Below, piece after piece: positions 1,116 through 45,921 of a stretch of 47,250 nt of DNA. A model generated the notes under the pieces. It searched no databases. It was not told the origin of the DNA and saw only the letters and a list, made by a program, of their open reading frames with translations. Position 1 is the stretch's first letter; each line of letters opens with the position of its first letter. The stretch is from a virus (taxonomy: Duplodnaviria > Caudoviricetes), in the IMG/VR virus record IMGVR_UViG_3300049930_000030, positions 1 to 47,250 of that record. One strand, written 5' to 3'. The translations under genes were made by a program, and so were the position numbers.

Positions 1116-4100
1116 TACTCGTCCTTTGCCTTGCGGGAGGCAGCCGACTTGATGGCCTTGATCTTAGTCTGATAGGACTTGATCCATTGCTGTAGCTTGC
1201 GATATTCAGCGGGGTCTTTTGTGGCCTTTTGAAGTTCTGTGGCGGTCTTAATCTGCTCGTTCAATTCTACCACTTCTGCCGAGTTCGTGGCAGCAATTCT
1301 AGCGCGAGCCTGCTTTTCCTTGGTACTGATCGCCAGGTCGGACGGGGCAAACGTGCGGTAAGGCAGGCCCGCCGCACCACTTGCAATCTCACGGGCACCG
1401 TACTTACGCGGCGTCTCGGGCTGCTTGGCTGCCGGGATGGGATTGAAACCGCTGGCCAGGTCGTATGCCTCGTTTGGCTGAATGATAGATTCAGCAGCCT
1501 TGCTGAGATAGGTGTTCTGGCGAATGTAGTCAATGGGGGACGGGCGCCGCTTGCCTGCCGGCATCCCGGCTGCGTCGCGCGGCGTGTCGGAACCGTAGTC
1601 GTAGGAATAGCCCTCTTGGGAAAAGGGGCGTCCAAGACCGTTCTTTCCTTCTGCAAACTGACGGGCGTACTGGAAGCCAGGAGTCAAACTGCCCACCGCA
1701 CTTTCAAGCAGCGCGCCCGAACTTGGTTCGATTTGCATTTCGGCGCTGTTCGTGCCCATGCCCGAGAACGGGTTGAAACCCGCCGTTCCAGCGGTGGTCA
1801 CGTTGCCCTGCGCATCGGTGTAGACCGGAAGCTGCCCGAGGCGGTACGACTTCACGTCGGCCGGGTTGATGCCGCTTTCCTGAAACTCTGCCGTCTGGAA
1901 GTCGTTGCCAAGGTTCGCAAGTTGAGCAAGCAACTGCGCCCGGAGCGGGTGAGTGACAGGCAGACGACCCACGAACTTCGTCATGTGAACGAGGAACGAC
2001 TGGAACGGCATCACGGCGCGTGCAGCGTTTCGCTGCCACGGGGCCTGGTTCGCATAGTCGTTGAGGAACTGACTAACTTGGCTTGCAGCCTTGTCCACGC
2101 CGTCCGGCCCAATGAAGCCCATCTTCTCGGCAAGAGACATCGCTTTGTCCATACGCTTGCCAGTTTCGAGCAATGCCTTACGCGACGCAATGCGGTTCAC
2201 ATTGCCACGGAACGCGCCGGCGCGCGACCATTCATCAATGCCCTCGTTGGCGAGGTTGGGCAATCCCGCAATCTTGCGGATCGGGCCAAAGCCGGACGGC
2301 GGGTGAACCATTTCAGTCGCGGCGAATCCGGTGCCGCGGGCAGCCACGGGCACAGCTTCGCCTGACAGCAACGAGCCTGGGGACGCTCCGGCAAGCAGCG
2401 CCATTGGAACATTGCCCACCAGGTTGTTGACGTAGAAGCCGGGGCGCAGCGTGAGCGCCGTGATGCGGAGAAACTGGTTGGGACTATCGAACACGAGACG
2501 CCCGGCCACCTTCGCCGCGCGCGGGAAGGCATCGTACCACCCGCCCATCTGCCCGTGAAGTTCGCTTGCCACATGCTTCGGCACCGCGTAGAACGGACCC
2601 ATTGCCTCCCCGATGTTGGCGGCGTTCTCTGCGTCGCCCACGATCACGGCGCGGGCCGCCTTGTCGAGTGCTTCACTCACGTTGGGCGATTTGAACGCCG
2701 CGTCCACCGCGCTAATTTGCGGGTCGATCGTGCGGGCATACGCACCAGGGGCAAGCAGGCTTTCCTTCGTGTAGTCAATGCCGCCCGAATTGTGAATTGG
2801 GTCGAAGTCCCGCATGTTTTCAACCGGCCGCGACAGGTACGGGTTTTGCGAAATATCGTGCAGGATACCGATGTTCATGTCGCTTTGGTTGCTGGCCCGC
2901 AAGTGGCGTGTGAGCACCTTCGTCGGGTTGCGCTCGTATTCTCCGGTCGCATACGTTCGGCCGGTCGAACGCTGCAACGCGCCCGGCTTGTTCGCGCGAA
3001 ACTCAACAGGCTTGAGCCTGTCCCACCCGGTCGCCTTGTTCGTCGGCTGAATCGGGAAGTAGGTCGGCGGCTCGTGGTGTAGGCGTACTTCGTCAATCAG
3101 ACTGGCCTTCATGCCTTCAAGGGTTGCGTCGTCCACGATCGTGCCGGGGCCAAGAGCTTTAAGTACAGTTTCGCCAGCACGATCATGTAGCCCTGACCAT
3201 TGTTCTGCTTCGCTAAGTGTGGAGCGTTGAAAATCTTCAAATTCTTTGGGGTATGCGCTAGCAAAAGGTCCGGGCGCTCGTGCCGCTTTGACCGCTGCGG
3301 TCTGTGCGTCAAGACGGTCCAACGCCGGGATGCGCCCACGCTTGGCGTCGGCCAACGCGGTAAGTCGAGTTGCACGGCGGTCGAGCGCGTCCGCGTGTCG
3401 CTGCCACCAAGCCGCGTCGCGGGCCTGCTGCCGGGTTTTGCCGAGGTTCTGTGCAATTGTGGTGGGCGCTCCGGGGATGGCAGCACGCGACGCTTCGGCT
3501 TCAAGGTTGGCACCCTCAAGCCCGAGTTCCGCTTTCGTAACGTCCGTGGCCTGGGCAGCCATGCGCGCACGGTTCGGATCGTTGGGATCAAGCCCTTCAA
3601 GTGGGGACAAGCCCTTCTGCGCCTGCTCGCTGCGACCGGCAAAGCGGGCGGCACGCTTCTCCGCAGTCGTGGCGGCCCGCGTCTCGGTGCGAGACTGAGC
3701 AAGTTGAGCCTTGAGGCGGGCGGCGGCAGCTTCCTTCTCGGCGCCCTTGGCCGCCTTGACGAGCGCGGCGTCGCGCATCTTTTCGGCGGTACGGGCGCTT
3801 TTCTCCGTGCCCGTCACATCGTTTACCCTCCGCGGAGCGCCCTCAAACGTTAGCTGCTCCGGGCCGCCAGTCTCAATGCGGAGGGGCTGGTGCGCGCGGC
3901 GGTCGATAATCTCGGGGGTGAGTGTGCCGCGGGCAAGTTCGCCTGCCTGCCGTTCCGCAATGAGTTGCTGGTACGCCTTGACGGCATCAATGAATTCCGG
4001 CCGCGCTCCGGTCGGCCAGGGCGAGGTTCCCTGCACCACGCCGGGAAGATGGTCAAGTTCAGCGGCGTCGAGTTTCCCGACAACCTGCGCAATGCTTGCC

Positions 4101-4930
4101 GGCACGCCCTCGTCCTTAAGCGCGCGTTCCTTGAAGCGGTTGGCAACCAAGTCGCGGGCGTGGTGAATCTGTTCCTGCTCAACCACCCACGGCCCGAAGT
4201 TGCTGTCCGTCTTGAGGGTTTGGTAAATGGCCGCGTTGCGCGCAGCCGGGCTCGTGGCTTCCGAAAACGCCATCGCCTTCTTGGCGATCGTCGTTGCCCC
4301 GAACTTGGCAGCAGCGCGACTGACCAAGGACGAAATGGCAGAGGGAGAATCAAGTGCAAGCCCCGCATCAAGCGCCGTCTCGGTCGGACGGCGAATGAAA
4401 GCCGCACCAGGATTGGTCACTTCCTCGCGGATATTCTTAACGATGTCGTGCGCCGCCATTGGCAGGGCGCGTCCGATCGCACGGCCAGCTTGCAGCATTT
4501 CGAGAACGCCGCGGCCGGGATCGTAGAAGGCATTTGGGAACGCCGGATTCGGTGGGGCGAGCCGGGCAACTTGAGCCACGCCCTCAACGCCAGCGCCAAG
4601 CGCCTGCCCAACACCTGAGAGCATGCCGCCCATTCCTTGCAAGGCGCGGCCCGGCATGTTGGCAAGGTACGGAAGGCCACCCTGCTTTGCCACATCCTCA
4701 GCCACGCCGATGCCGATGCCGATGCCTAAAGGGCCACCAGGGGCGGGAGAAATCGGTTCGTTGAGAGTGGACTTGCCAAGCAAGTCGTTGCGGTTGGCTT
4801 GTGGGGCGGGCGCGGCTTGATGCAGGTACTCAGGATGCTCGTGAGCGATAACCGCAAAGTCATCGTCAGAGACATCATTGAGCACGCCGTTCGGATCGAG
4901 CGATTTCCGCGTCACGCCGAAGTCGGACAT
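1115..4930 (-). CDS. Large internal virion / ejection protein
   Basis: 1271 aa, Ala-rich and helical; last of three genes after the tail genes, the podovirus ejection-protein position. Confidence 0.65.
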   Translation of the reverse strand: MSDFGVTRKSLDPNGVLNDVSDDDFAVIAHEHPEYLHQAAPAPQANRNDLLGKSTLNEPISPAPGGPLGIGIGIGVAEDVAKQGGLPYLANMPGRALQGMGGMLSGVGQALGAGVEGVAQVARLAPPNPAFPNAFYDPGRGVLEMLQAGRAIGRALPMAAHDIVKNIREEVTNPGAAFIRRPTETALDAGLALDSPSAISSLVSRAAAKFGATTIAKKAMAFSEATSPAARNAAIYQTLKTDSNFGPWVVEQEQIHHARDLVANRFKERALKDEGVPASIAQVVGKLDAAELDHLPGVVQGTSPWPTGARPEFIDAVKAYQQLIAERQAGELARGTLTPEIIDRRAHQPLRIETGGPEQLTFEGAPRRVNDVTGTEKSARTAEKMRDAALVKAAKGAEKEAAAARLKAQLAQSRTETRAATTAEKRAARFAGRSEQAQKGLSPLEGLDPNDPNRARMAAQATDVTKAELGLEGANLEAEASRAAIPGAPTTIAQNLGKTRQQARDAAWWQRHADALDRRATRLTALADAKRGRIPALDRLDAQTAAVKAARAPGPFASAYPKEFEDFQRSTLSEAEQWSGLHDRAGETVLKALGPGTIVDDATLEGMKASLIDEVRLHHEPPTYFPIQPTNKATGWDRLKPVEFRANKPGALQRSTGRTYATGEYERNPTKVLTRHLRASNQSDMNIGILHDISQNPYLSRPVENMRDFDPIHNSGGIDYTKESLLAPGAYARTIDPQISAVDAAFKSPNVSEALDKAARAVIVGDAENAANIGEAMGPFYAVPKHVASELHGQMGGWYDAFPRAAKVAGRLVFDSPNQFLRITALTLRPGFYVNNLVGNVPMALLAGASPGSLLSGEAVPVAARGTGFAATEMVHPPSGFGPIRKIAGLPNLANEGIDEWSRAGAFRGNVNRIASRKALLETGKRMDKAMSLAEKMGFIGPDGVDKAASQVSQFLNDYANQAPWQRNAARAVMPFQSFLVHMTKFVGRLPVTHPLRAQLLAQLANLGNDFQTAEFQESGINPADVKSYRLGQLPVYTDAQGNVTTAGTAGFNPFSGMGTNSAEMQIEPSSGALLESAVGSLTPGFQYARQFAEGKNGLGRPFSQEGYSYDYGSDTPRDAAGMPAGKRRPSPIDYIRQNTYLSKAAESIIQPNEAYDLASGFNPIPAAKQPETPRKYGAREIASGAAGLPYRTFAPSDLAISTKEKQARARIAATNSAEVVELNEQIKTATELQKATKDPAEYRKLQQWIKSYQTKIKAIKSAASRKAKDE

Positions 4931-5923
4931 TTAGTGCCCCAGTGCCCAGTACGCCTTACGCTGCGCGAGCGTCCGTTTCGTGTCGCCCGATTCCATGCCC
5001 GCCCGACCCTTGCCGTTCCACGGCTGCTTTGCGGGGGACGCTCCTGGAGCAGCAGCAGTGGGGGCAGCGCCAGCAGCAAGAGCTTTGTCCGTTGCCGGGC
5101 CAGGCTGGTGCGTGAGGGCTGGCATGGGCGGCGTGGCCGGGCGGTTCTCACCCTTGAGCAGTGCGTTATATTCAGCCGAGAGTCGCTGCTGCTGAAAGCC
5201 CTTGGCAACCGTCACGTCGGATTCCGTCAAGCCTTGCTCGCGTGCCTTTCTGTCAATGTCACCATATGCTTTTGCCAATGCGGAACGGTAACGTGCGGCT
5301 AGCTCGGCACGGTTACTTGCAGAGCCAACGCCGCCGCCCGTGCCTGCCGCCTTGCCAGGGATCGTCTGTTTGGTCTTGCGGGCCTCTGCCGCGCGCTTTT
5401 CAAGTTCTTCAACGCGGTTCGCGTGCAGAAGGGCCTGGTCACGGGGGAACTGTTCGTCATGCAGCGCCGCCTTTTTCTCAAGCAGGGTGACGGCAGCCGC
5501 GTGGTTGCCTTCTGACATCTTTTGCCGGGCCGCCGCGTCGTACTGATGTAAGAGCATTTGCGTGCGCAGTGACCGGGCCTTCTCGTAGTCGAGTTGCTTC
5601 CGCGCGGCATACTTGCTTGGGGCGGCGAGTTCTTCCGCGACGGCTTGGTGGGCGGGGGTCGCCGCTCCGGGCTGACGAAGCAGGTTGGCGCCGCTGTTCG
5701 CACCGAGCAGGGCAAAGAACTGCTGCAACGCGCCGGCAGTCTGCGGGGGCGCAGAGGGTGCTTGGAGTTGTGAAATTTGATCTTGCATTTCACGGCTCAC
5801 AGCGTCCATGCCGCCAACGGCAGGATTCATTCCACCGGGCACCTGTTCGCTCTGCTGCATCGGGTCGCCGGGCACGTCGCCAAGCATCGAGTTGCGCATG
5901 AGAAGGGTCGGGTCAAAGCTCAT
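4931..5923 (-). CDS. Internal virion / ejection protein
   Basis: 330 aa, Ala/Gln/Gly-rich and helical; synteny. Confidence 0.55.
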   Translation of the reverse strand: MSFDPTLLMRNSMLGDVPGDPMQQSEQVPGGMNPAVGGMDAVSREMQDQISQLQAPSAPPQTAGALQQFFALLGANSGANLLRQPGAATPAHQAVAEELAAPSKYAARKQLDYEKARSLRTQMLLHQYDAAARQKMSEGNHAAAVTLLEKKAALHDEQFPRDQALLHANRVEELEKRAAEARKTKQTIPGKAAGTGGGVGSASNRAELAARYRSALAKAYGDIDRKAREQGLTESDVTVAKGFQQQRLSAEYNALLKGENRPATPPMPALTHQPGPATDKALAAGAAPTAAAPGASPAKQPWNGKGRAGMESGDTKRTLAQRKAYWALGH

Positions 5924-5926: not shown

Positions 5927-6499
5927 CTAGTACCCCGGATAGAAGGGTGGCGTACGCCCCGGATTACCCCAAGTGCCGCCAGGGTTGCCGCCGTAGTTCG
6001 GCATTGGGTTGCTGTTTACCGGCCCCTTCTGCCCGTTCTGGCCGAGCAGCAGCGGGTAGGCCGACGTGCCGAGTGAGCCAAGGAACGCTTGGAGGCCGGA
6101 CGGATGGAGCGCGTTGAACTCGCCGTGTGCGGTCTGGCCGCTCAGGGTCTTGAACGCAAGTTCCTGGGCGCGTTGGAGAAGGTCGCTTTGTACACCCATA
6201 CGCCCCGAGGCAGCAAGACTCGATGCACCAGCGCCCGCAATCTGGCCGAGGCCGGTGCTGCTCAGGCCGGAGCGTGCCCCTGCCGCAGCGAGCGAGTTCT
6301 GAAACTGGTTCGCACCGAGGTTCGCTTGGTTCGTCATGCCCTGCCCGATCGGGCCGCCGAGCAGCATCTTGTAGTATTGAGCGATCAAGGCTTGAATTTG
6401 TTTTGGATCGTAGGAGGGCGTGTCGGGACGGCCCACCCCGAACAATTGACCAATCGCGGGGAGCAGACCAGCGGCAATTCCAACTGCGGGAAGGGGCAT
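5927..6499 (-). CDS. Small ejection / DNA pilot-like protein
   Basis: 190 aa, Gly/Ala/Gln-rich with hydrophobic N-terminus; GAAAGGA RBS. Confidence 0.6.
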   Translation of the reverse strand: MPLPAVGIAAGLLPAIGQLFGVGRPDTPSYDPKQIQALIAQYYKMLLGGPIGQGMTNQANLGANQFQNSLAAAGARSGLSSTGLGQIAGAGASSLAASGRMGVQSDLLQRAQELAFKTLSGQTAHGEFNALHPSGLQAFLGSLGTSAYPLLLGQNGQKGPVNSNPMPNYGGNPGGTWGNPGRTPPFYPGY

Positions 6500-6533: not shown

Positions 6534-8021
6534 TTAGTAAAGCGGCGTGTAGTTCAACTCAACGCCGATAACGTTGACCGTATCTGTTGAGTCGTCCGAA
6601 CCATCCGTCGTGTCGCGGTCGATCACGATGCGAACGATGTTGTCGGCCGCAACTGTGATGGCACCGAGGCTGCTTTCAAAAACGTTAACGTAGGTCAAAG
6701 GATTGACAATGGCCGTCGTCACGGTTGTGGCAGCACCTACAGGAGAAGCGCCTACTGCGTAGGCCAGTGTACGAAGGCGCATGACGAAGAACGAGTTGAT
6801 TCCAAAACCCACATTGATCATGCGATAGACGATTTTGGCCGTGACCGTACCGCTCGCCCAATCCTTGGGCACCCGCCATTGGTAGAGAATTCCTTGTGGG
6901 CCGACACCAGGCGCGTCCACAAATTGGAACCCTTGGTACATATTGGGATAGGTACCTACCATGCCCGCTGCCATCGATGTACCATTGGCCTGTACCCAAT
7001 CCGCGGAGGGAATGAACACGCGCCGGGTTGGCACCTGCGCGACGGCCGAGATCACACCAGCCGATGAAATTGACCACAGGCTGGCCGCAGCCGGGAACGC
7101 CGCAGGCATGGTGTAGATGTTATCGGAAGTGATCGCGGCCGGAGCCTTGAAGCCGGTGTAGTTGTTGCCTGCGCTAGTTTCTTCAAGGCGTAGCTCGGGG
7201 GTTGCAGGGCCGGCCCCGAGGTACTTCCGAATCCAAATGCGCCCGCGGTTATCCATGTTACCTGTGCCCGACCACGTTGCACGCACACGATTCGTACCGC
7301 TCATGTACCCGGTGTAGATTGTGTAGGGCACGCTGCTGTCTGAGACGAGCACCCACGCCTCAGAACTGTCTTGGCCATAGCCATTGTCTAAGAAGCCGTT
7401 TGCATCTTTGTAGGTATAGATGCGAGCACCAACACAACCGACCTCATCGGCGGTACAGGTTGGTGGGCCAAGATTACTGTTGGTACTGCCCCACGTTAGG
7501 ATTGCCTTGGTTGCTCCGTCTGCGATTCCGAAGTCGGTAGTTTGGTATCCCATACGAATAAATGCTGGAACCGAAATGTCCGTCGAGTTCCCGAGGCTTA
7601 AGCCCCCACGAAAGTCGAACGTCGCAGCATTTCTACCATTTGAATTGAGCATTTGTAGAATGGCCGCGGTTTGCCCTGCCGCCGCCTTGAACAACCCAAC
7701 CACGGTTGCCACCACCGAGCCGATGACGCCGAGCTTTGCGCCTGGGGTGCTCGTGCCGATGCCAACATTCTTGCTGGACACCGTTAAACGAACCGTGTCG
7801 GAACCTTCGTTCGTCCACGGAATGTTGGTCAACAGGTCGTAGTCAAACGCGCCGCCGCCTGTTGGCTGAATAATCGTCGTGCCGCCGTTGGGCGAACGGG
7901 AAAAGTTCATTCCGAGAAAGCGGTCGATGTCCAATGCCCAGTCCACAATGGGACGGATGGCGCTCCGGGTAGCCGCGTCGGCAATGGGCGAGAGTTGTGG
8001 TTTGTTGAATTGACGGGGCAT
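6534..8021 (-). CDS. Tail fibre / receptor-binding protein
   Basis: NVGIGTSTPGAKLGV fibre motif; beta-rich C-terminal domain; follows the nozzle gene. Confidence 0.7.
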   Translation of the reverse strand: MPRQFNKPQLSPIADAATRSAIRPIVDWALDIDRFLGMNFSRSPNGGTTIIQPTGGGAFDYDLLTNIPWTNEGSDTVRLTVSSKNVGIGTSTPGAKLGVIGSVVATVVGLFKAAAGQTAAILQMLNSNGRNAATFDFRGGLSLGNSTDISVPAFIRMGYQTTDFGIADGATKAILTWGSTNSNLGPPTCTADEVGCVGARIYTYKDANGFLDNGYGQDSSEAWVLVSDSSVPYTIYTGYMSGTNRVRATWSGTGNMDNRGRIWIRKYLGAGPATPELRLEETSAGNNYTGFKAPAAITSDNIYTMPAAFPAAASLWSISSAGVISAVAQVPTRRVFIPSADWVQANGTSMAAGMVGTYPNMYQGFQFVDAPGVGPQGILYQWRVPKDWASGTVTAKIVYRMINVGFGINSFFVMRLRTLAYAVGASPVGAATTVTTAIVNPLTYVNVFESSLGAITVAADNIVRIVIDRDTTDGSDDSTDTVNVIGVELNYTPLY

Positions 8022-8023: not shown

Positions 8024-10555
8024 TTAGCCTGGATTGTCCGAGAAGCCCTTGCCCGCAATGTCGAGCGCGAAGTATGCAAGGGAGAAGCCCTGGTTCGTGT
8101 CACTCGTGGCCGCCTCAAGGCAGAATGATTCCATTGGCCCGAAGTGCTGGTCGGTACGCTCGAAGGCACCCGTGTTGCTCAAGGTGCTCTGGTCATTGGA
8201 CAGGTTGGCACCCATGCTGGCATCGCGCGATTTGCCTGTCCACCGCTGGCCGCTGGCCGGCGTGATGTAATCGCCCCTCGTCTTTTTGATCCACGGAGTC
8301 ACGGTAAGAATAATGTCCGGGTCGGTGAAGCGCCCGTGCCGCCACCACACACGCTCGACGGTGGCTTGCATCCCAACACCCGTGGGGCACATATCGCGCG
8401 TGACGATCGACATAATCAAGTTGGCGTTCGCGGCAGCGGCGTCCTGCCATCCACGGTCCTCAACGTAGGTTGCACCGTTCGTATGCCCGGTGACGAAGAT
8501 GTGTTTGTTTGCCAAGAACGCAGGCGCTCCGGCAGCAGCAGCGAGGTCGATCGGCCCGGTGACTTTGAGTTTCCCACCCTCAAGCGTTTGGCTCGGGTGG
8601 TAGTGCAAGATCAATCGCTTCGTCGGGCGTGTGCTGCTCTCGTCGCCTGCGGGAACGTACCCGAACACGAGCAAGTGTTCCTTGGGATAGTTCACCAGCC
8701 AGCACGACGAAAGCCTGTCGGCGTTCACCATGCCGTACCAGTCGATGCCGGCGATCAACGTGTCAACGTTGTAGCCGTCCGTGTAATGAATCCCGTTGAG
8801 CGAGACGAACGCGGCCAGGATCGGGCGGCCCGGTGTGGAGAACGTGGCAATCGCGTTGGTGTTCACCACACCCTTGTCGGGCGAAATCTCGTTCTTGATG
8901 CGCCCGGTTTCAAAGAACGAATCTTCCTCTCGCGGAAGCTTGTTGATCTTCCACAAGCACTTCTGCATCCCGATCAGCACGACTTCGCCAAGGGTCCGCA
9001 CGCACGTTACAACGTCCCGGTGCTTGGGATCAATTCGCATACGATACGGCTTTGGGAAATACTCAGGGCGGTCGGGCTGTGAGTAGACAATCTCGCCCGG
9101 CTTGTCCACATCGTTGAGAACCATCTGGCCCTCAAACACGTCGCCGGTGCTCGCGGTCGGGGGCTCGCTGTTTGACGGGTAGAGCACCGTCGTGCCGCCG
9201 CTGATGGGAATGGTGATGAACGGGAACAACTGGCCGAATGGAATATTGTTCACGCCGGACGTGCTGAACACCTGAATACGAACGTAGTCGATTGAGAGCG
9301 AAATGGCCGACGTGGCAACGATGTGGACGCCGAAGGTCGCTGCGTTTACGTCTGCCGCGGTGTAAGTGCCGGGGGCGCTGCCAAACAAGTCGCCGTCGCC
9401 ACCGAACGATTCAATCTTGTAACTGGCAGAGTTGATAAGCAGCGTCTTGGCCGTTCCAATCACGGTCGGCACAGCCTTGCAAATGCCGACGCTGATGTTG
9501 CTCGTGACAGCCTTGTACTTGATTTCAACGCGAATACCGGTTACAACGCCGGAAACTGCAAGGCCATAATTGGATGTGTCAAGCGTCTGGCCGGTGGCGA
9601 ACGTGGTGTTCACACCGTCGTCAACCTTGGCGTTGTTTGGGTTGGTCGCCGTGCCGCTGGCAGTGCCGGGGACGTTGAAGTTTTGCAGCGTCACAGCACC
9701 AACAACTGTGGAAGCCTGTCCAATGGGCGCCTGAGCCACGAGTTTGAACAACGAGAGCGGTGGGTTTGGCGGCCGGTTCACCTGGACTGGATCAATTTCA
9801 CCGATCGGCCCGGCCATGTAGACGCGGCGGGCCTGAATAATTCCCGTGGCCGTATCGCCGTACTGGCCCAGGTTCGTTTGGGCGGGAAACGTAACCTGGA
9901 CCGAGTTCGCCGTTGAGTTAACGTTGATGGCCGCGAAGGTTTCGCCTTCCCACGCGCTCTCTAAGAAGTATGGTGCAGTCTCGCCTGACTCGTCCGTAAC
10001 TTCGGTGGTGATGAAGAAGTACCAGCCGAGCGGGAAGTCCTCGTTGTTCGGCCAGCTTCCAGTGACCAGCGCAAGCGCGGGTGGTGACACCACCGGAGCG
10101 AGCCCGTGACGCCGCACGGTGTTGTTTCCAAGGAACGCAAGGTTGCGCCCGAGCAAATCGCCCGTGGTCGTGTTTGCCCCGATGAGCAGAACGTGGCGGT
10201 CTTGGAAGTAGACGGAATCCAAGCCGGTCGGGATGGCGATGGCATCGGCAAAGTCGGTCCACGTTCCGGTTTCCGCAGTGAATGGTGACACGGACAACAC
10301 GCCCGCCGCTCCGGTCGAGCGAACCTGAACGAGCCGCGCCGTAATGGAATCAAACTCCATATACTTGAGGCCGAGCACAGCCTGGGCCTGGGTTGCGCTG
10401 TACGCCGCGCGGCCACGGTGCTTGTAAAGCGCCGGGTTCTCAGGCTTGTGGTAGCAGTTGTTGGCACGCGCAAGCTCGCCGGGGCGCAGCAGCGAGCGGT
10501 CGCGGCTGTTGACCAGGCCACCGTCCAGCATTTCAACTGCGGGGGTTGAACTCAT
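8024..10555 (-). CDS. Tail nozzle / tubular protein B (P22 gp10 / T7 gp12-like)
   Basis: Start at MSSTPAV (TAATG coupling); N-terminal GGLVNSRDRSLLRPGELARANN motif typical of podovirus nozzles; 843 aa, beta-rich. Confidence 0.7.
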   Translation of the reverse strand: MSSTPAVEMLDGGLVNSRDRSLLRPGELARANNCYHKPENPALYKHRGRAAYSATQAQAVLGLKYMEFDSITARLVQVRSTGAAGVLSVSPFTAETGTWTDFADAIAIPTGLDSVYFQDRHVLLIGANTTTGDLLGRNLAFLGNNTVRRHGLAPVVSPPALALVTGSWPNNEDFPLGWYFFITTEVTDESGETAPYFLESAWEGETFAAINVNSTANSVQVTFPAQTNLGQYGDTATGIIQARRVYMAGPIGEIDPVQVNRPPNPPLSLFKLVAQAPIGQASTVVGAVTLQNFNVPGTASGTATNPNNAKVDDGVNTTFATGQTLDTSNYGLAVSGVVTGIRVEIKYKAVTSNISVGICKAVPTVIGTAKTLLINSASYKIESFGGDGDLFGSAPGTYTAADVNAATFGVHIVATSAISLSIDYVRIQVFSTSGVNNIPFGQLFPFITIPISGGTTVLYPSNSEPPTASTGDVFEGQMVLNDVDKPGEIVYSQPDRPEYFPKPYRMRIDPKHRDVVTCVRTLGEVVLIGMQKCLWKINKLPREEDSFFETGRIKNEISPDKGVVNTNAIATFSTPGRPILAAFVSLNGIHYTDGYNVDTLIAGIDWYGMVNADRLSSCWLVNYPKEHLLVFGYVPAGDESSTRPTKRLILHYHPSQTLEGGKLKVTGPIDLAAAAGAPAFLANKHIFVTGHTNGATYVEDRGWQDAAAANANLIMSIVTRDMCPTGVGMQATVERVWWRHGRFTDPDIILTVTPWIKKTRGDYITPASGQRWTGKSRDASMGANLSNDQSTLSNTGAFERTDQHFGPMESFCLEAATSDTNQGFSLAYFALDIAGKGFSDNPG

Positions 10556-12177: not shown

Positions 12178-13142
12178 TAGATCGTGTCCATCCAGCGGCG
12201 CGGGCGGGGCACGTTGTTCCAGTCCACTTCGGGGATGAACAACATATCGTCGTCCACTTGGCCGCTGTCGTCGTCAATGCACTCTTTAAGTGCAGCCAAC
12301 GCACTTTGCTTCCGGTCGCCCGTGCGAACAATTTCTGAGTCCTTGTTCGCCATGTAGTGATATTCAGCGAGTTGGAGTAGCGCATCTACATAGATGTCGG
12401 GCACGTCCAACGTGCGGGCCTCGTCAGCCACGGAAACGTCGTTTAAAAACTTCTGAATCTCACGGAAGTATTCGAGAACAAGAGTATCAACAAAAGTGGT
12501 AGTCGCTCCGGTGGGGGTAGACACGAGGCGCAGCACGGACGTGGGCAACGGCAGAATGTTTGCCGCGTCCGGGATGCCCTGCAACGGCTCAATCATATAG
12601 CCCCACTGCCCAAAGTCGGCAGTTGGGTCGCTCACCCGGTTCACGAACCGCGAGCGTGCGTAGGTCAACGTTACACCACTGGTCAGGCGCGCGTAGCTTG
12701 GCTCTTTGACCAGGTACGGCAATGCGTAATCGCTCTGGCCCGACCAGATGGGAATTGGCCCGCTGAACGTAAGCGTGATCGGGTCGTTGGACGCCGTGGC
12801 AAGGGCCGACAATGTAAGTTGGCTGTTGGAAACCTTGGCGAGCACGGTCGTGCCAGCCGGGATGCCGGTGCCAGAAACCGTCGTGCCCTTGTACACGTTA
12901 GCGAAGTTGGGGAAGGTCACGCCCGTGGGCAGCACGAGAACGTTGGAGCCGAGCGTCGTGAGGGAGGCAACGGTGAAAGTGTTCAGGTTATCAAGACGCA
13001 GAAAGTCCCAAGTGTTTCTGTTCCAAGTGTTGATCGCACGGTTAATTGCCTCGCCGGCAGCACGAAGCTCATCTTGGTCATTTTGCCCCCCCAAACTTCT
13101 AGCAACAACAATCTTTGCGTTAGTAAGAGTCATTGTTGACAT
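12177..13142 (-). CDS. Head-tail adaptor / tubular protein A with inserted small beta domain
   Basis: Helical N-terminus (AINRAINTWN..WDFL) and C-terminal LDVPDIYVDALLQLAEYH; inserted VSGTGIPAGTTV..LTLS module; synteny. Confidence 0.6.
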   Translation of the reverse strand: MSTMTLTNAKIVVARSLGGQNDQDELRAAGEAINRAINTWNRNTWDFLRLDNLNTFTVASLTTLGSNVLVLPTGVTFPNFANVYKGTTVSGTGIPAGTTVLAKVSNSQLTLSALATASNDPITLTFSGPIPIWSGQSDYALPYLVKEPSYARLTSGVTLTYARSRFVNRVSDPTADFGQWGYMIEPLQGIPDAANILPLPTSVLRLVSTPTGATTTFVDTLVLEYFREIQKFLNDVSVADEARTLDVPDIYVDALLQLAEYHYMANKDSEIVRTGDRKQSALAALKECIDDDSGQVDDDMLFIPEVDWNNVPRPRRWMDTI

Positions 13143-29573: not shown

Positions 29574-29652
29574 TTTTCTTCCCCTCGTGGCTGGTGCGTG
29601 CTGCGCCCGGAGCGCCTGAGTGATTCCCGGCACGTTTCTCGAAAATAAAGCG

Positions 29653-29681
29653 TTGACACTTTGGGTCGCCCCGAGTATTGT
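29653..29681 (+). promoter_or_regulatory. Sigma70-type promoter
   Basis: TTGACA-N17-TATTGT. Confidence 0.75.
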
Positions 29682-29711
29682 GGTTCTTGTCTCGAAAGTC
29701 AAGGAGGGAAC

Positions 29712-31522: not shown

Positions 31523-31651
31523 GCGCGTGGCAAGCCGAGTTTGACGCGGCGTTGACCAGTTTGGAGCGGCGCATGGCGTGCTGCTCCCGGAGCGTCCACG
31601 AGTTTGCAATGGAGGTTGGCGATGTACCGAGAACAACGCCTGGGGGGACCG

Positions 31652-36391: not shown

Positions 36392-36944
36392 ACGGTGGGG
36401 CGCCGACATTCTGATTGCGTTGTTCCTGTTGCTCGGGGCGGTGGGCCTGTCGTGCCTTGCCCGGAGCGCCCCCCTGGTCCACTACGTTCCCGTGTCGTAC
36501 AGTGTTCTGGACGACCAGCCGCAAGAGGCTGACCCCTTCTCGTACCCGCAACTGTGGGTGCGCGACGAGGGCTTGCACAAAATCAACCTGGCCGGGGTGC
36601 GGTTTGCGGTATGGTCGCCACCTATGAAGGGCGCATGGATGAACCCGAAAGCCCACATGACGGTGAGTTTAAACTACTGGGGTGTCGAGGACGCTCCGGG
36701 GCAAGCACTAGTGGTGTCAGGCTTTCAAGACCCCACTCGCTCGTTCATGCCGGGTGTGAGCACAGACAGCACGAGCACGATCGACCCGGTGGGCTCGGGC
36801 GCTGTTGTGACGAGCATGACCGACAGCACGTTGACCGTCAAAGCCTGGTGGCGCTTGACCAACCCGACGTGGCCCACGGCTTGGACCGACACGACGTACA
36901 AAACGCTGGTCCCAGAAGGTTGGCAGCGTGTCGGACAACCTTGA
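36384..36944 (+). CDS. Secreted or membrane-anchored protein
   Basis: MIRRWGADILIALFLLLGAVGLSCLARSA signal-like N-terminus. Confidence 0.7.
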   Translation: MIRRWGADILIALFLLLGAVGLSCLARSAPLVHYVPVSYSVLDDQPQEADPFSYPQLWVRDEGLHKINLAGVRFAVWSPPMKGAWMNPKAHMTVSLNYWGVEDAPGQALVVSGFQDPTRSFMPGVSTDSTSTIDPVGSGAVVTSMTDSTLTVKAWWRLTNPTWPTAWTDTTYKTLVPEGWQRVGQP

Positions 36945-37939: not shown

Positions 37940-38108
37940 GCGAGTGTTTGCACGAAGGGTCGTTGGGCTTTCACAGCGAGTCGTACTACGACGGCTTTGC
38001 GTGTGACTGGTGCGGCGCCGTTGGTGAAGCCGAGAATCACGATCTAGACGAGCCGGACGAGGACGAGTGGGTGAACGAGGGCGGGCCTCCGTCACGGAAC
38101 GGCAACGG

Positions 38109-39011
38109 TTGACCGACTTCGAGGCCGTGTTTGCCGCGCTCGCCCACGAGGGCGAGGTTCGGTGGTTCTGCAAGCGCGGGCAGTACGACGCGCTCGGCGG
38201 GGTGGCACGATCGCCCGCTGACCTTGAGGCGCGGTTGAGTGCAAACAAGCGAGGGTACGATGTCTACGTCCAACTCAATCCGACCGTTGGGTTCAAAGGG
38301 CTGCGGGCTGGTGCCGCTAACGTCTCTCATTTCCGGGGGTGGCTGCTCGACTTGGACCCCGATTCTGGACTGGGAAACGTTGGGCGTAGTGCCTTGGATG
38401 GTGCCGCAAACAATCTCGCTTGCCGATTGCTTTGTACGCCATGGCTTTTGGACAGTGGAAGGGGTGCTCAAGCGTGGTTCATGGGGCCGGCCGAGACGCC
38501 GACACGCGCAGACTGGCGTGCGGTGGCGCGCAGGGCGACGGCACGTTTGGTCCGGGACTTGACGCTCCCGACCGGGGTCCACGCCGACGCGATGGTGTGC
38601 GACGTTTCCCGCGTGGCCCGCTTGCCAGGCACAGTGAACACGCGCACAGGCCGTGTGGCTAGGCTGCTTGCCCCCGGAGCGCCCTCTGCTGCGCTGTGGC
38701 CAACGTTGGAATCACTCGATCCGGGCGAGGACGTGACGGGAGAACCAGAGCTTGCCAACAGCCACGATTCGTACCGCCAGGTTTGGACTGGCCTGACCGC
38801 GATGGCGCAAACGTTTATCTCACACGGCTGGTCGTACCCTGGGCGCCATACGGCGTTGTGGCACACCGCGGACGTGCTGCGGCAGCGGGGCTTGACACAA
38901 GAGGCGACCACACGCGCGTTGTGGATGGGCGCGCGGGAGTGTCGCCCGAAGCTCGGCTGGCTGGACGTGACATACGCGCTCGGTCGGGCGTACCAGCAAA
39001 AAGAGGGTTGA
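38109..39011 (+). CDS. AEP-superfamily primase (RepB-primase-like) with PriCT-like C-terminus
   Basis: VYVQLNP, DLD, DSGRGAQAW, DVSRVARLPGT.N and GRHTAL; start uncertain (38067 or 38109). Confidence 0.82.
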   Translation: MTDFEAVFAALAHEGEVRWFCKRGQYDALGGVARSPADLEARLSANKRGYDVYVQLNPTVGFKGLRAGAANVSHFRGWLLDLDPDSGLGNVGRSALDGAANNLACRLLCTPWLLDSGRGAQAWFMGPAETPTRADWRAVARRATARLVRDLTLPTGVHADAMVCDVSRVARLPGTVNTRTGRVARLLAPGAPSAALWPTLESLDPGEDVTGEPELANSHDSYRQVWTGLTAMAQTFISHGWSYPGRHTALWHTADVLRQRGLTQEATTRALWMGARECRPKLGWLDVTYALGRAYQQKEG

Positions 39012-39066: not shown

Positions 39067-39954
39067 ATGCCACTGATCTATGACCAGGAAATCCCGCTTC
39101 CCAAGCAGCGCATCGCGCTTTACGGCGACCCGAAGGTTGGCAAGACGCCGCTGGCTTTGCAGCTTCCGTTCGGTTCGCCCTACTGGGGCGAGGCGGTGTA
39201 TTGGGCTGCCGACGATGGCTCGGAATCGTTGCGTTCGTGCCCGCCCGCCTCGCGTCGTTTCCTTCACGTTGTTAAGCCTGCCCGTGATCCGAAGGGCGGC
39301 AAGTACGATCCGATCAAGGAAGCGTGGGACATCTTGATGACGGATTGGCGCAAGGAATGGCCCGGAGTCAAGACGTTCATTTGGGACACGGCCACCGAGA
39401 CGGGCCTTGAGGCGCTTGCCGACATTGCCGATCGCGGACAGTTTTCCGAGAAAAAGCATATCCAGATCGGCACGCCGGGCTCGGGCTACGAGCACAACCT
39501 TCCCATGCAGGGCGACTACTTGGGCGCGCAGGGAGAAATCGCGCGGATGCTCAAGGCTGCCTTCAAGCTCGACATGCACCTGATTGTGATTTTCCACACC
39601 GCGATTGACGAAACCGACAACGGTACCGTGATCGCGGGAGGCCCGGCCACGGTGGGCAAGGCGACGATTCGCCAGATCGCCAAGCCGTTTGACGCGGTGC
39701 TTCGCGTCGAGAAAAAGCAGGTGTTTGACCCGGCGACCAAGGCCGCGACGCAAGGCATCGTGATCCACTCCGAGGCGGCTGGCATCTGGATTGGCGGTGT
39801 GCGAACGCCGACTGAGAACCCGATTCCCCAGGTCAACGTGCCGATGAACAAGCCGCTTGGCGCGTACTGGCCGCTGTACATGGGGTCGTTTTACAAGGAA
39901 GTCCCGGTTTCCGAACTCGCTGTGGGCGCTCCGGTCGAAGCAGCAACGACGTGA
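39067..39954 (+). CDS. AAA_24 / Sak4-like ATPase (recombinase)
   Basis: IALYGDPKVGKT, FIWDTAT, IFH and P..VGK. Confidence 0.82.
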   Translation: MPLIYDQEIPLPKQRIALYGDPKVGKTPLALQLPFGSPYWGEAVYWAADDGSESLRSCPPASRRFLHVVKPARDPKGGKYDPIKEAWDILMTDWRKEWPGVKTFIWDTATETGLEALADIADRGQFSEKKHIQIGTPGSGYEHNLPMQGDYLGAQGEIARMLKAAFKLDMHLIVIFHTAIDETDNGTVIAGGPATVGKATIRQIAKPFDAVLRVEKKQVFDPATKAATQGIVIHSEAAGIWIGGVRTPTENPIPQVNVPMNKPLGAYWPLYMGSFYKEVPVSELAVGAPVEAATT

Positions 39955-40920: not shown

Positions 40921-41393
40921 GTGCCGGCGTGTTTGGGGCACCGGGCGGGCACGGTAGGGCGGCTGCTGATATCGAGGATGAAATCACGCGATCGCTTGGC
41001 CTGCCCGCTCCCGGCCCGTACAGCGGGGACGTGGAACCTCGTAACTTTGGCGCTCCGGCGAGGGCAATGGGACAGTCGCCCGACCCTGGCGCGCTCATTG
41101 CCGGGGTCAACGTGGCCGCGAGCGTGATGAATTCGGTCTACGGTGATGTGCCGCTGTCCAAGTACGAGCTTGGCATCGTCGTGAGCGTCTGCACGCGGGC
41201 GTTGCGCAACCACTTGGATCGACAGATTGCTGACCTCAACGAACGTCTCGGCGTGCCGCGGGATGCGCCGCCCGTGCCGATTGAGGACGTAAAGCCGACG
41301 CGCACCACACGCGGCCAGGGGCGCAAGCCAGCCGAGCAGATTGAGCTTCCGCTTGGTTCGACGCAGGGCGCAGCGGAAGGCGCGGAAGTGTAG
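40917..41393 (+). CDS. Hypothetical protein
   Basis: GTGA coupling; 158 aa. Confidence 0.65.
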   Translation: MSAGVFGAPGGHGRAAADIEDEITRSLGLPAPGPYSGDVEPRNFGAPARAMGQSPDPGALIAGVNVAASVMNSVYGDVPLSKYELGIVVSVCTRALRNHLDRQIADLNERLGVPRDAPPVPIEDVKPTRTTRGQGRKPAEQIELPLGSTQGAAEGAEV

Positions 41394-42254
41394 ATGGACT
41401 ACTGCGCGGGGTGTCCCAGACGTGTTGCGGGGGCAGCGTTGTCCGGGCACCCCGGCGCGGTAGGTTCGGATGGACCGGACGATGCGCCGATCCTCGTGGT
41501 CGGCATGTCGCCAGGAGAACAAGAGCTTGCGGCGGGGCAGCCGTTCGTTGGAGCGAGTGGTGCCTTGCTGTGGGGGTACGGCCAGCGGGTGGGCCTGACG
41601 AGGCCGGACTGTAAGATCGTGAACGTAGCCTGCTGCTGGCCGTGCGGTCCCAAGGGCAAGACGTTGAGCGTGAAGCAAGTCGCCGCGTGTCGGCCACGGT
41701 TGGTGGACACGATGGACCGCTCTAGCGCAAGGGTAGTCTTGTGCCTTGGGGCCGATGCCTTTGAAGCGGTGACTGGCCTTATCTCGTGGGAGCGCAAGGA
41801 ACGTGCGGCACGAGCGAAGCGGGGCGGCTGGTCGGGGGGTAAGGGCGTGGGCATTGAGCAGTGGCGTGGATACCTCGTCAAGCCCTCCGACTGCCCGCCA
41901 GACCTGGTGACGCAGACCGTGCCGGACCCTGATAATCTGTACAAGGCCGGGGGTGTGTGCCCGTGGTGTAGGGGCAGTGAGATTGAGCGCGGCACCATGG
42001 GCTGTGGGCCGTGCAACAACACCGGCAAACGGGCAAAGGGCGACCCGAAGCCCAAGAAAATCGTGGTTGAGGTTCCTCGCCCCCTGCCCCGGAGCGCCCA
42101 ATGGATTGTCGGAACGTACCACCCGAGTTTTATCATACGCATGGGCCGCAAGCCCATCCCCGCGTTCTACAACGACGTGGACCGAGTGCTGCGTGCGCTG
42201 AAAGACGACCTTGACGTGGTGGACGTGAGCTACGAAACGGAGGTTGGGGCGTGA
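41394..42254 (+). CDS. Family-4 uracil-DNA glycosylase-like protein with inserted Zn finger
   Basis: CAGCP, VGMSPG.QE..GQPFVG.SG, NVACCWP, LGADA and TYHPS. Confidence 0.88.
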   Translation: MDYCAGCPRRVAGAALSGHPGAVGSDGPDDAPILVVGMSPGEQELAAGQPFVGASGALLWGYGQRVGLTRPDCKIVNVACCWPCGPKGKTLSVKQVAACRPRLVDTMDRSSARVVLCLGADAFEAVTGLISWERKERAARAKRGGWSGGKGVGIEQWRGYLVKPSDCPPDLVTQTVPDPDNLYKAGGVCPWCRGSEIERGTMGCGPCNNTGKRAKGDPKPKKIVVEVPRPLPRSAQWIVGTYHPSFIIRMGRKPIPAFYNDVDRVLRALKDDLDVVDVSYETEVGA

Positions 42255-42499: not shown

Positions 42500-43466
42500 C
42501 GAAAACGACCCGAAGGCCGCGGCGTGGTTGCGCGAGTTGATTGCGCAGGGGCACCTTCCAGAAGGGAACGTAGATGAACGATCCATTGCAGACCTGGCTG
42601 GCCGAGACTGTGGCCCAACGGCGCACTTCTTCGCCGGCATCGGAGGCTGGCCCCTCGCCCTTGCCCTCGCCGGATGGCCTTCCGATCGAAGCGTCTGGAC
42701 CGGAAGCTGCCCCTGCCAGCCGTTCAGCGCGGCCGGTAAAGGTCACGGTCAAGCAGACCCGCGCCATCTATGGCCCGAATGGTTTCGGCTTATCCGCGAG
42801 TGCCGCCCTGACACAATCTTTGGGGAGCAGGTTGAAAGCGCGGTTGGGCACGGATGGCTCGATGGAGTATTCGCAGACCTGGAAGGAGAAGGTTACACCT
42901 GTGGGGCGGTTGTATTGGGCGCACACAGCGTCGGGGCGCCGCACCTTAGACAACGCCTCTACTGGGTGGCCGACGCCAAGCGCAGGGGAGTTCGGGGACA
43001 GCGACCCGGAGAGGATGCTGGCGAGGCGGGCGGCGTGCAAGGAACGGAAGGGCAACGGGAACGGCTTTGGACTGACGTTGGCACATGCGGCGAGCTTGGC
43101 GGGGTGGCCCTCCCCCAAGGCGAACAACTCAACGGGGGAAGGGACGCGGGGAGCGAGCGGGGACAACTTGCAAACGGTGGCCGGGTGGGCCACGCCGACA
43201 AGCCGGGACCACAAGGACGCGGGGAGCACGTTGGAGAACACGCCGATCAACGGCTTGTTGGGGCGACAGGTTTCGTTGGCGCGTGGGGAGACTTCGACCT
43301 TATCCCCTGCGCCGATGGAAAAGCGCGGCGCGTTGAATCCGGCACATTCCCGCTGGCTCATGGGGTTCCCGCGCGCGTGGGACGACTGCGGGGTTACGGC
43401 AATGCCATCGTCCCGGAAGTCGCGGCGGCCTTCGTGAGTGCGTTCTTGGAGTGTGAGCGTGTCTAA
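42492..43466 (+). CDS. C5-cytosine DNA methyltransferase, alpha subunit
   Basis: FFAGIGG (I), PCQPFS (IV), EQV (VI), PHLRQR (VIII), YGNAI (X); motif IX absent from this frame. Confidence 0.92.
42862..43437 (+). CDS. C5 methyltransferase beta subunit, nested in the +1 frame
   Basis: Motif IX-like [14 protein letters not shown] and three GW(P/A)(T/S)P repeats; frame open from 42574; start uncertain. Confidence 0.8.
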
Positions 43467-45201
43467 CTTCGTGGTTGCCGACTGTGAAACCGAGGGAATT
43501 GGGTCGACTGCTAGGCTTGACAGAATTGGGTTGGGCACGAGTGATAGGACGTGGACTTTACCCTGGGACCATAACACTAGGGACCACACCCGAAGGCTTT
43601 TGTCCGACCCAACACTTGAAAAGGTGGCACACAACTGGCAATTTGACGAGCCGCTGTTGCGGCGTAATGGCGTAACGATAGCGCCGCCGTTCTTTGACAC
43701 AATGCTTTGCGGGCATTTGATCGAGGCAGACTTGCCGAAGGCGCTGCGGTCTATGGCGCCGTTGTATCTCGACGTGCGCCCGTGGAAACACTTGGCTGAG
43801 GATGAACCCGAGCTTTACAACGCGACCGACGTGGCCGTAACCCGCGCGTTGTACCTGGCGCAGCGAGAAATCTTGCAGACCGAGGGGATGCTGGATTACT
43901 TTACCGGGATCGTGATGCCGGGGGTTCCGGTGTTGATCTATCAAACCGAGCTTGGCCTGACGGTAGACCTTGACGAACGCGAGCGGTTGAGAACCAGCCT
44001 GCTCGACTATCTGGCCGACAGCTACCAAACCTGGGAGGGCTTGAGCAATGTCAATCCGAAGTCGCCCGCTGCTCTGTGTGGACTGTTTTATGGAACGCTT
44101 GGGTTGCCTACTCAACGGAATAAAGACACGGGTAAGCCGTCTGTTGACGTAGACGCCCTTGAAAGCCTCCGTCTCGCTGCGCCGCTCCACAGTCCGTTAA
44201 TCGACGCGCTTCTCGAAGTGCGACGCACAGAGAAGCTGTTGTCAACCTACATCGACATGGACGGCGCGGCAGGCGGGCGGGTTCACGCACGCTTCCTGCC
44301 CGGCCAGAAAGACGACACGAGCGAGAAGGGCGGCAAGGGCGCGGCGACGACTGGCAGGCTCGGAGCGTCCCCAAACCTGAACAACATTCCCGGAGACTGG
44401 AAGCACAAGGGTCGGCGCGTGGGTGCGGACGAGGCCCAGGAATTGCTAAGGCAGGGGGCAAAGGTACTCCCGCCCATGCGCCGCATGTTCGTACCGCGTC
44501 GCCGCGGCGATGTGTTCCTCGAAGCGGATTACTCGCAACTTGAGCTTCGCATCATTGCGGCGGTGTCGGGCTGCAAGGACTTGACCCGCGCGCTTGCCGG
44601 CGACGTTCACGAAACCACGCGCCTTGCGATCGAAGCGGTTTCCGGCGCGCCGTGCTCGCGCGTGCTGGCGAAGAACTTCTCGTACCTGACTTGGTACGGC
44701 GGGAAAGAACGCGGGATGGTCAACTTTTTCCGGGGCAAAGGCATCCCCATTTCGATCAACCAGGCGCGGGCCGGGCAGTTGGGCATTGCGCAAGCGTACC
44801 CGCGGGCTTGGGCGTGGAAGGAATCCGTGGAACGCCAAGGCGCCGCGGACGGCTGGCTGCGGGAACCTCTCGGGCGCAAGCGGCACTTCTACGGGGGCTC
44901 ACGGGACGTGACCGAAATGACGGACTTTATCCCGCAGGCTACCGGAGCGTCCATGTTGTGGTCGCAGCTACCAGGGCAACGTGCGCTTGCGGAGGCGCAT
45001 GGTGCCTACTTCCCCTTGACCATCCACGACTCGTACTTGCACGAGGTTCCCGCGGACGGGGTACGGGAGTACGCGGCTAAGCTCAAGGGACTGCTTGAGG
45101 TTCCGTACAACCAGGTCGCTCCGGGGTGGAGCGTCCCAACTGATTGCAAGGTGGGGGCGAACTGGGGTACAATGGAAGGGTTGACGGAGGTTCAGGCGTG
45201 A
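43459..45201 (+). CDS. Family A DNA polymerase with 3'-5' exonuclease
   Basis: DCET, HNWQFD, YNATD, TGRL, motif A DYSQLELR, motif B RVLAKNFSYLTWYG, motif C IHDS. Confidence 0.95.
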   Translation: MSNFVVADCETEGIGSTARLDRIGLGTSDRTWTLPWDHNTRDHTRRLLSDPTLEKVAHNWQFDEPLLRRNGVTIAPPFFDTMLCGHLIEADLPKALRSMAPLYLDVRPWKHLAEDEPELYNATDVAVTRALYLAQREILQTEGMLDYFTGIVMPGVPVLIYQTELGLTVDLDERERLRTSLLDYLADSYQTWEGLSNVNPKSPAALCGLFYGTLGLPTQRNKDTGKPSVDVDALESLRLAAPLHSPLIDALLEVRRTEKLLSTYIDMDGAAGGRVHARFLPGQKDDTSEKGGKGAATTGRLGASPNLNNIPGDWKHKGRRVGADEAQELLRQGAKVLPPMRRMFVPRRRGDVFLEADYSQLELRIIAAVSGCKDLTRALAGDVHETTRLAIEAVSGAPCSRVLAKNFSYLTWYGGKERGMVNFFRGKGIPISINQARAGQLGIAQAYPRAWAWKESVERQGAADGWLREPLGRKRHFYGGSRDVTEMTDFIPQATGASMLWSQLPGQRALAEAHGAYFPLTIHDSYLHEVPADGVREYAAKLKGLLEVPYNQVAPGWSVPTDCKVGANWGTMEGLTEVQA

Positions 45202-45416: not shown

Positions 45417-45544
45417 CCGTGCCGGGGGTCCACCCCTGGTTCGCGGGCCTTGCCGTGCGGGATTGGTTGGTCGATCACGGCTACGACTGCACCCCGCGGT
45501 GGGTGCGACAGGTTGGAACGTTTGATTATTTGGTGGGAACGTGA
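45380..45544 (+). CDS. Small hypothetical protein
   Basis: GGAGG RBS; coupled to endolysin start. Confidence 0.5.
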   Translation: METTETGTTVQVTVPGVHPWFAGLAVRDWLVDHGYDCTPRWVRQVGTFDYLVGT

Positions 45545-45921
45545 CCCCGCTTGAGTGGAGGACGATCAAGCACTTTGCCTCGCACGAGTTTGATAGCCCG
45601 GACGCTCCGGGGAGCGGACGAGTGATGTCCTTTGCGTTTGTGACCGCGCTCGACAAACTACGCGAGGCATGCGGCTTTGCTTTCGTGGTGCAGTCTGGCT
45701 ACCGCACGATTGCCCACAACGCCCAGTTGTCCGGCGCCGTGGACGGCAGTGCCCACACGCGCGGCATGGCCGCCGACATCGGGGCGGGCACGAGCGGCAT
45801 GAAGTTCAAGATCGTGGGCGGCGCGTTCAACCTGGGCTTCCGGCGCATCGGCGTTGGGGACCGTTTCATCCACCTTGACATGGACGCCGCGAAGCCGCAG
45901 AGTGTCCTGTGGACGTATTGA
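45541..45921 (+). CDS. Peptidase M15A endolysin
   Basis: HF..EF, SGYR..HN, SAHTRGMAADI and FIHLD. Confidence 0.92.
   Translation: MTPLEWRTIKHFASHEFDSPDAPGSGRVMSFAFVTALDKLREACGFAFVVQSGYRTIAHNAQLSGAVDGSAHTRGMAADIGAGTSGMKFKIVGGAFNLGFRRIGVGDRFIHLDMDAAKPQSVLWTY

Follow-up and report, generated by a model that had tools for sequence, protein, structure and literature searches.

The word CGCTCCGG, an octamer repeated throughout IMG/VR virus record IMGVR_UViG_3300049930_000030 (Duplodnaviria; Caudoviricetes), is a real, selected and strand-polar DNA signal that is private to its phage lineage, and it is most likely (a probability of roughly 0.6) the template recognition site of a RepB'-like primase encoded by the same phage (38067-39011, + strand). 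The analysis covered positions 1 to 47,250 of the record, and this whole stretch of 47,250 nucleotides is termed the window. A first-pass annotation had taken the octamer for a DNA-level signal under selection and had offered, among other functions, a primase site, a Chi-like site and a methyltransferase target; selection is upheld and the primase site is the best reading, while the Chi-like and methyltransferase options are disfavoured.

The 47.2-kb window holds 35 copies of the octamer, 21 on the + strand and 14 on the − strand (as CCGGAGCG), and every coordinate in the first-pass annotation matches one of them. Over-representation, which had been claimed from a rough expectation, is evident under Markov models of order 0 to 4, where 2.9-5.1 copies are expected, and the next commonest 8-mers in the window reach 20 copies each. 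Within genes the octamer occurs 29 times, compared with a mean of 3.3 and a maximum of 10 in 1000 synonymous-codon shuffles, 2.9 in context-preserving shuffles and 2.8 (maximum 6 over 30 samples) in shuffles that also barred 52 avoided restriction-like words. Hence the two checks named at the outset, codon-preserving shuffles and Markov models, never came to a similar count. The word has sharp edges, in that 22 of its 24 single-base variants are present 0-4 times and the remaining two (17 and 10 copies) are near the null in genes (13 vs 10.8 and 10 vs 6.1). It was also correctly noted that the copies fall in several reading frames and between genes: 30 of the 35 are inside genes, five frame/orientation classes are represented and 5 copies are outside called genes. 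Enrichment is seen with both gene orientations (19 vs 1.1 expected in sense, 10 vs 1.4 in antisense), and intergenic copies are roughly proportional to non-coding length.

The octamer has a favoured flank on either side, giving an extended motif of roughly tGGr-CGCTCCGG-N4-RGCAg. On the 5' side, G at −2 accompanies 27 of the 35 copies, the same number as was first reported. On the 3' side there is a second preference, with A at +15 in 22 copies (p 3e-8) and T at only 27 of the 385 bases from +9 to +19 (19.6% in the background), and this is seen in both reading-frame classes. None of the 35 copies is followed by A, as the first-pass annotation had remarked; the genome avoids TCCGGA (1 vs 11.8 expected), which accounts for the lack of A at +8, so this feature need not belong to the signal. 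The 47-kb phage genome has 11 sites with the extended motif, and its octamer density is 742 per Mb. Scans of viral contigs with the extended motif (65 and 119 loci) returned none at this density, and scans of viral contigs with capsid and with terminase found no close relatives. Seven loci, 2 viral and 5 from metagenomes, were obtained from an alignment of the capsid at 25-51% best-segment identity, and none of them is enriched for the octamer. Closest among the homologues are P0015 (35.5 kb), with a primase 65% identical, and P0002 (12.5 kb), with a capsid 89% identical.

More distant relatives were recovered through the primase, whose profile matched 425 clusters at E <= 1e-10 and whose alignment gave 25 viral loci; after four near-duplicates were dropped, 21 records were resolved, of which 19 were fetched whole and two fragments of 10-11 kb were left out. 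The relatives have about 10 structural and replicative core genes in common with the window at roughly 22-43% identity, including those for capsid, portal, terminase, helicase, Sak4 and exonuclease; the latter two are found in 19/19 relatives and the helicase in 17/19. They represent a phage group (G006-G026; loci L311-L335), of which no cultured member was found, with genomes of about 38-66 kb, SU10-type capsid and portal, a RepB'-like primase, Sak4 and a family A DNA polymerase (PolA). CGCTCCGG itself is not abundant at any of the 25 primase-found loci, which have 0-5 copies each, and 15 of the 19 relatives carry an enriched asymmetric word of their own on both strands, as judged by codon-controlled nulls. 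Six use CGAGGGA (37-49 copies vs 10-16 expected) and two use CCGAGGG; the others include CGAGGC(A), CCCCGAGT, CGGCGCA, CCGCGAG, CGGGCCGA and a weak CCGAGTG, and in G012 the word is ambiguous, either CGGCAC or CGAGCCGG. When 14 relatives were retested with the avoidance-aware null (G011 was omitted as a near twin of G008), 14/14 words remained enriched (p 1e-5 to 1e-14).

These words follow the primase tree and track the phage phylogeny. Words with a CGAG core are present in 10/11 members of one clade of primases that spans 39-66% GC, and the primase of the window forms a long branch of unresolved position. Of the ten lineage words, nine open with C(1-4)G[AG], compared with 10/31 words from control phages, and word density converges on 0.46-1.04 per kb, equivalent to one per 1.9-4.4 kb per strand. 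Even with codons controlled for, the strand that reads CG first has a C-rich 5' flank (pooled, 1.18-1.41x at −3 to −7), and in 13 of 16 genomes the coding strand carries an excess of it.

Strand polarity is evident from the spacing of the words, which had been chosen without use of spacing. With 15 genomes pooled, there are 79 same-strand pairs within 500 bp where 123.4 are expected, whereas cross-strand pairs show no depletion (123 vs 125.3). The same-strand ratio of 0.64 compares with 1.19 +/- 0.13 for count-matched control words, the lowest value in 1000 draws being 0.83. Leaving out the window does not remove the depletion (76 vs 117.1), and the CGAG clade shows it too (36 vs 70.4). As close copies are depleted only on the same strand, the signal is taken to be read with strand polarity. 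In the window itself the octamer is spread genome-wide with a 21 to 14 division between the strands, so that neither confinement to one strand nor clustering at the ends is seen.

The proposed reader is a stand-alone primase of the archaeo-eukaryotic primase (AEP) family with a C-terminal helical domain. By sequence, open reading frame (ORF) 38067-39011 gave only a weak prim-pol match (PHROG 2478, E 1e-6). Its structural model (predicted local distance difference test, pLDDT, 84) has RepB' (PDB 3h20) as its best Foldseek match (E 3.7e-7), and VIA gave Z scores of 15.2-15.3, a tie between the catalytic domains of RepB' and S-2L PrimPol; the comparison with RepB' 3h25 (Z 15.2, root-mean-square deviation 3.4, 179 aligned) recovered the AEP catalytic fold. 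The ORF is therefore predicted from its model to fold as an AEP primase, with RepB' and S-2L PrimPol its nearest matches. Residues D95, D97 and D174, candidate counterparts of D77/D78/D134 of RepB', are invariant in 9 homologues, and the motifs DxD, GRGxQ and RxPGxxN are invariant in eight; in-frame stops were noted within the primase match of two relatives, one TGA in G017 and one TAA in G025. The C-terminal domain is modeled as all-helical (pLDDT 89). Compared with 48,161 chains, PriX ranks first (Z 5.8, root-mean-square deviation 2.7, 70 aligned), and pRN1, RepB' and NrS-1 scored Z 5.3, 5.0 and 4.8; all four values are in the noise range for helical domains, and Foldseek found nothing for this domain at E <= 0.001.

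RepB' is a sequence-specific primase that primes at defined sites together with the RepA helicase and makes primers of 10-12 nt (PMC8567376), and AEP enzymes initiate with two purines placed beside a template purine (PMC10345425). By analogy, we infer that a RepB'-like primase together with a RepA-type helicase would provide the phage with a ready, sequence-specific reader of single-stranded DNA. In the proposed mechanism, the RepA-type helicase would unwind the DNA, the primase would bind the word on the single strand and make a short primer, and PolA would extend it. Since chance alone would supply a site of 7-8 bases too seldom, at about one per 15 kb here, synonymous changes would have been selected until sites were 2-4 kb apart on each strand. 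Nothing would be gained from another site nearby on that strand, and sites would be needed on both strands if forks run in either direction, whether by strand displacement or by recombination restart driven by Sak4 and the exonuclease. With the CGCTCCGG strand as template, the primer would start with GG opposite 3'-GCC-5', and with the CCGGAGCG strand as template it would start opposite 5' CC; either assignment fits purine-purine initiation beside a template purine (PMC10345425), as do the C(1-4)G[AG] start of the words and their C-rich 5' flank. It is proposed more tentatively that the primase of each lineage may read its own 7-8-base word, with copies spaced evenly and independently on each strand by selection.

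Two characterized enzymes bear on this proposal. RepB' of plasmid RSF1010 is, like the predicted phage enzyme, a stand-alone AEP primase of the same fold that is paired with a RepA-type helicase, and its priming is sequence-specific with sites on both strands, ssiA and ssiB. The plasmid differs in having two 40-nt hairpin sites at one origin (PMC8567376), whereas the 35 sites of the window are 8 bases long, dispersed, located for the most part in genes and without a common hairpin, and the phage has its own PolA. A hairpin model for the octamer was rejected, as the 40-nt windows around the sites fold no more stably than others of matched GC (p 0.13 and 0.19), and any one base pair is shared by 5 of the 35 at most. 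The primase-polymerase of phage NrS-1 is also an AEP enzyme with an asymmetric 8-base template site; its sites are TTTGGTTA and GTG(A/G), and the 8-base site is read through a helix bundle domain (PMC8718748). It differs in being a primase-helicase fusion, and its octamer is present once, in an origin-like repeat cluster. In the NrS-1 genome (L463:17062-17377), eleven GTTACAC repeats in both orientations lie just after the primase gene and enclose the single TTTGGTTA, an arrangement like an iteron-containing origin. NrS-1 is thus a precedent for the length of the site and not for a dispersed array, and as a positive control for a dispersed octamer it failed.

The base rate of such words was estimated in 31 control genomes, comprising 29 viral records chosen for one extended-motif match and 2 capsid-only relatives, none of which has the RepB'-like primase family; the first 40 kb of every genome was scored. 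Of the relatives, 12/19 had a both-strand score of 3 or more, as did 7/31 of the controls (p 0.005; rank test p 0.034). The contrast is non-significant at thresholds of 2.5, 3.5 or 4, and the non-independence of the relatives makes these p values too favourable. The top two both-strand scores belong to palindrome-based words in controls. Asymmetric words enriched at least 3-fold were found in 12/19 relatives and 4/31 controls, a comparison that rests on criteria set afterwards and, again, on related genomes. Prim-Pol enzymes are present in 4/31 controls, where the strongest word, that of G051, is clustered (66 close pairs vs 2.7) and not dispersed, so the controls show no link between Prim-Pol and dispersed words. 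Palindromes were also enriched in the first 40 kb of some controls, CGCCGGCG in G029 and CGGTACCG in G036 and G040 (24 vs 4.5 and 9 vs 1.4).

The threshold dependence and the post hoc criteria of these comparisons weigh against the primase as reader, and so do several further results. Control G029 (69% complete), in which no primase of these families was detected, has an equally strong asymmetric word, CGCCAGCT, with 36 copies vs 6.0 expected in genes and 4 same-strand close pairs vs 9.2 in the first 40 kb; spacing does not name the reader, as this similar layout in a control makes plain. The spacing effect is non-significant in the window alone (3 same-strand pairs vs 6.3), and outside the CGAG clade its p value is 0.09 or 0.009 depending on which word is chosen for G012. 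Four of the 19 relatives, G007 (partial), G016, G020 and G026, have no clear word. Capsid and other structural genes are co-inherited with the primase, and co-inheritance cannot single out the primase because capsid, portal, terminase, helicase, Sak4 and exonuclease are common to the same phages. The C-terminal domain matches primase helix bundles weakly (Z 4.7-5.8), and the known 8-base AEP site, that of NrS-1, is not dispersed. Clear lagging-strand polarity was seen in no genome examined, G012 included, and the words of G012 are on both strands despite its genome-wide strand skew. In that genome, unlike its relatives, third-position GC skew is very strong and one-sided, with + strand values from +0.16 to +0.93 irrespective of how the genes are oriented, which suggests one-directional replication; third-position skew fixes neither replication direction nor template strand. 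The reader of the word is inferred.

The alternative that survives best, unlikely as it is, holds that the word is a phage-encoded analogue of Chi or a helicase signal, that is, a polar stop or loading site for the PD-(D/E)XK exonuclease (30548-31522, + strand), the Sak4-like single-stranded DNA annealing protein (39067-39954, + strand) or the helicase (28563-29573, − strand) during recombination-dependent replication. Control G029 has the same layout, and the reverse complement of its word appears to overlap the Pseudomonas Chi sequence GCTGGCGC (Chi as given in PMC12315714). The exonuclease and Sak4, which would be the rival readers together, occur in every one of the 19 relatives, with the helicase in 17 of them, and a polar site required at breaks in either direction would also yield copies on both strands with same-strand spacing. 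To our knowledge, no single-domain PD-(D/E)XK exonuclease, Sak4 or RepA-type helicase reads a long sequence. RepB'-type primases, by contrast, are sequence-specific (PMC8567376), and the common C(1-4)G[AG] start and C-rich flank follow the AEP initiation rules.

It is improbable that the phage mimics a signal of its host, such as Chi for RecBCD or AddAB, an uptake sequence or a nucleoid-protein site. The word resembles Chi in phages LLS, P1 and MD8, where an asymmetric octamer is also the commonest 8-mer, at about one per 1.3-1.9 kb, and the figure of about one per 1.9 kb for Chi-rich phages (PMC12315714) is similar to that of the window. However, Chi is a host sequence, and in these lambdoid phages the sites are polar and clustered at the ends in LLS and MD8, and the LLS-type phages are without a recombination module (PMC12315714), whereas the word of the window is unpolarized, evenly spread over both strands and lineage-private, in phages that have their own recombination genes (Sak4, exonuclease and endonuclease VII in the window). 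Related words also persist over phages of 39-66% GC. An extended-motif scan of the Genome Taxonomy Database (GTDB) gave about 15,000 stretches, and among the 120 loci listed none of the 80 with flanks is at the phage's density; the four best have 6-9 octamers vs 0.9-2.4 expected. The first-pass annotation had proposed looking for the octamer in candidate host genomes, and in five genomes followed up it is present at 79-429 per Mb vs 742 in the phage, a level that does not support a host signal (the figure of 429 is from unpublished genome G005). Likewise, 121 genomes of the phylum to which G004, a Holophagaceae genome, belongs, a set that includes unpublished G081 and G106, have at most 7 extended sites each vs 11 in the phage. 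A cluster look-up returned no host name and an Atlas look-up for the methyltransferase-like protein gave only viral clusters; the phage's host may lie outside the genomes sampled. Host Chi is disfavoured, then, by a word that is unpolarized and evenly spread, by the relatives' words tracking phage phylogeny and by the lack of a rich genome among the bacteria searched.

More doubtful still is a double-stranded site for a virion, packaging, ejection or repressor protein, comparable to the stoperators of cluster A mycobacteriophages, which also number more than 20 asymmetric sites per genome, are read by a phage protein and differ between lineages (PMC9283540). Structural genes are co-inherited with the word, and its two-part preference of roughly 20 bp could be a double-stranded footprint. 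Stoperators, however, are 13-mers in intergenic gaps that are oriented with transcription (PMC9283540), whereas CGCTCCGG sites are found chiefly inside genes and in either orientation; one orientation would presumably be preferred by a packaging or ejection motor, and spacing is selected within a strand, not across strands. Finally, it is very improbable that the octamer is the target of the methyltransferase-like ORF (42574-43437, + strand) or that codon use and the avoidance of restriction sites produced it as a by-product. The 52 avoided words explain the absent A at +8, but the null that includes them expects 2.8 copies vs 29 observed, and the ORF, an unlikely reader, has at most one weak match in the 19 relatives (G012, E 0.004), 15 of which carry words.

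The window is one contig of 60.8% GC with a 78-bp terminal repeat, and therefore represents a complete circular phage genome of 47,172 bp. Both stretches that were tested match, with zero substitutions, contigs of one soil metagenome run, which is possibly its source. This run alone was listed as containing the sequence, and no RNA dataset was. Among cultured phages there were zero terminase or primase matches, one weak portal match and only distant PolA matches. The genome encodes an SU10-type capsid, portal and adaptor, a terminase, endonuclease VII, a uracil-DNA glycosylase, an M15 endolysin and PolA (43438-45201, + strand). The methyltransferase-like ORF (PHROG 1008) matched two PHROG methyltransferase families and none of the Pfam or NCBIfam models, and by eye may be a partial enzyme. 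A small exonuclease-like gene (19625-20233) with a weak match to PHROG 403 is located between the terminase and portal genes and is kept in 17/19 relatives. Approximately 70 bp of alternating purine-pyrimidine (CG/TG) repeats (23158-23229) occupy the gap between divergent gene blocks and may be Z-DNA-prone or regulatory. The window strongly avoids restriction-like words, 52 in all: 18 of the 64 six-base palindromes are absent, CCCGGG occurs 0 times vs about 25, the asymmetric words GAAGAC, CTGAAG, GAGACC and GGCGGA are nearly absent, and the relatives are without 5-40 of the 64 palindromes. Such avoidance points to hosts with many restriction systems.

The RepA-type (AAA_25) helicase gene (PF13481, E 1e-22), whose best plasmid match is annotated 'helicase RepA family protein', is on the − strand within a +-strand region, with its neighbours on the opposite strand. 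Four −-strand octamer sites (27702-29607) surround it, and at its 3' end there is an AT-richer stretch with a 17-bp inverted repeat (28531-28576). The region around the gene (27783-29811) is a candidate origin.

The + strand copies of the octamer are at 2384-2391, 3467-3474, 4004-4011, 5663-5670, 7961-7968, 8525-8532, 10307-10314, 12504-12511 (adaptor gene), 14359-14366, 14938-14945, 16515-16522, 19326-19333 (portal gene), 20334-20341 (terminase large subunit gene), 22353-22360, 26981-26988, 30726-30733 (exonuclease gene), 36692-36699, 39927-39934 (Sak4-like gene), 41051-41058, 45117-45124 (PolA gene) and 45603-45610 (intergenic). Those on the − strand are at 1940-1947 (in gene 1115-4930), 6267-6274, 10093-10100, 17150-17157, 18590-18597 (portal gene), 27702-27709, 28111-28118 (outside called genes), 28238-28245 (intergenic), 29607-29614 (intergenic, upstream of the helicase gene), 31587-31594 (intergenic), 36461-36468, 38674-38681 (primase gene), 42089-42096 (uracil-DNA glycosylase gene) and 44942-44949 (PolA gene).

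Most characterized primases recognize about three bases, or a single long site at an origin. A literature search that mostly left subscription papers outside its scope found nothing on CGCTCCGG or on long primase sites dispersed over the genome of a phage. A long, genome-wide site that differs between related phages and is spaced strand by strand would, if the proposal is true, be a different way to organize priming. The test that compares same-strand with cross-strand spacing is a cheap means of sorting over-represented phage words into polar and non-polar signals, and with about ten natural pairs of enzyme and word, template recognition by AEP primases would become directly testable. If word and enzyme do change together, these phages would constitute a natural panel of orthogonal sequence-specific primases, each part of a replication system in which the start of DNA synthesis would be confined almost entirely to the DNA of the phage itself.

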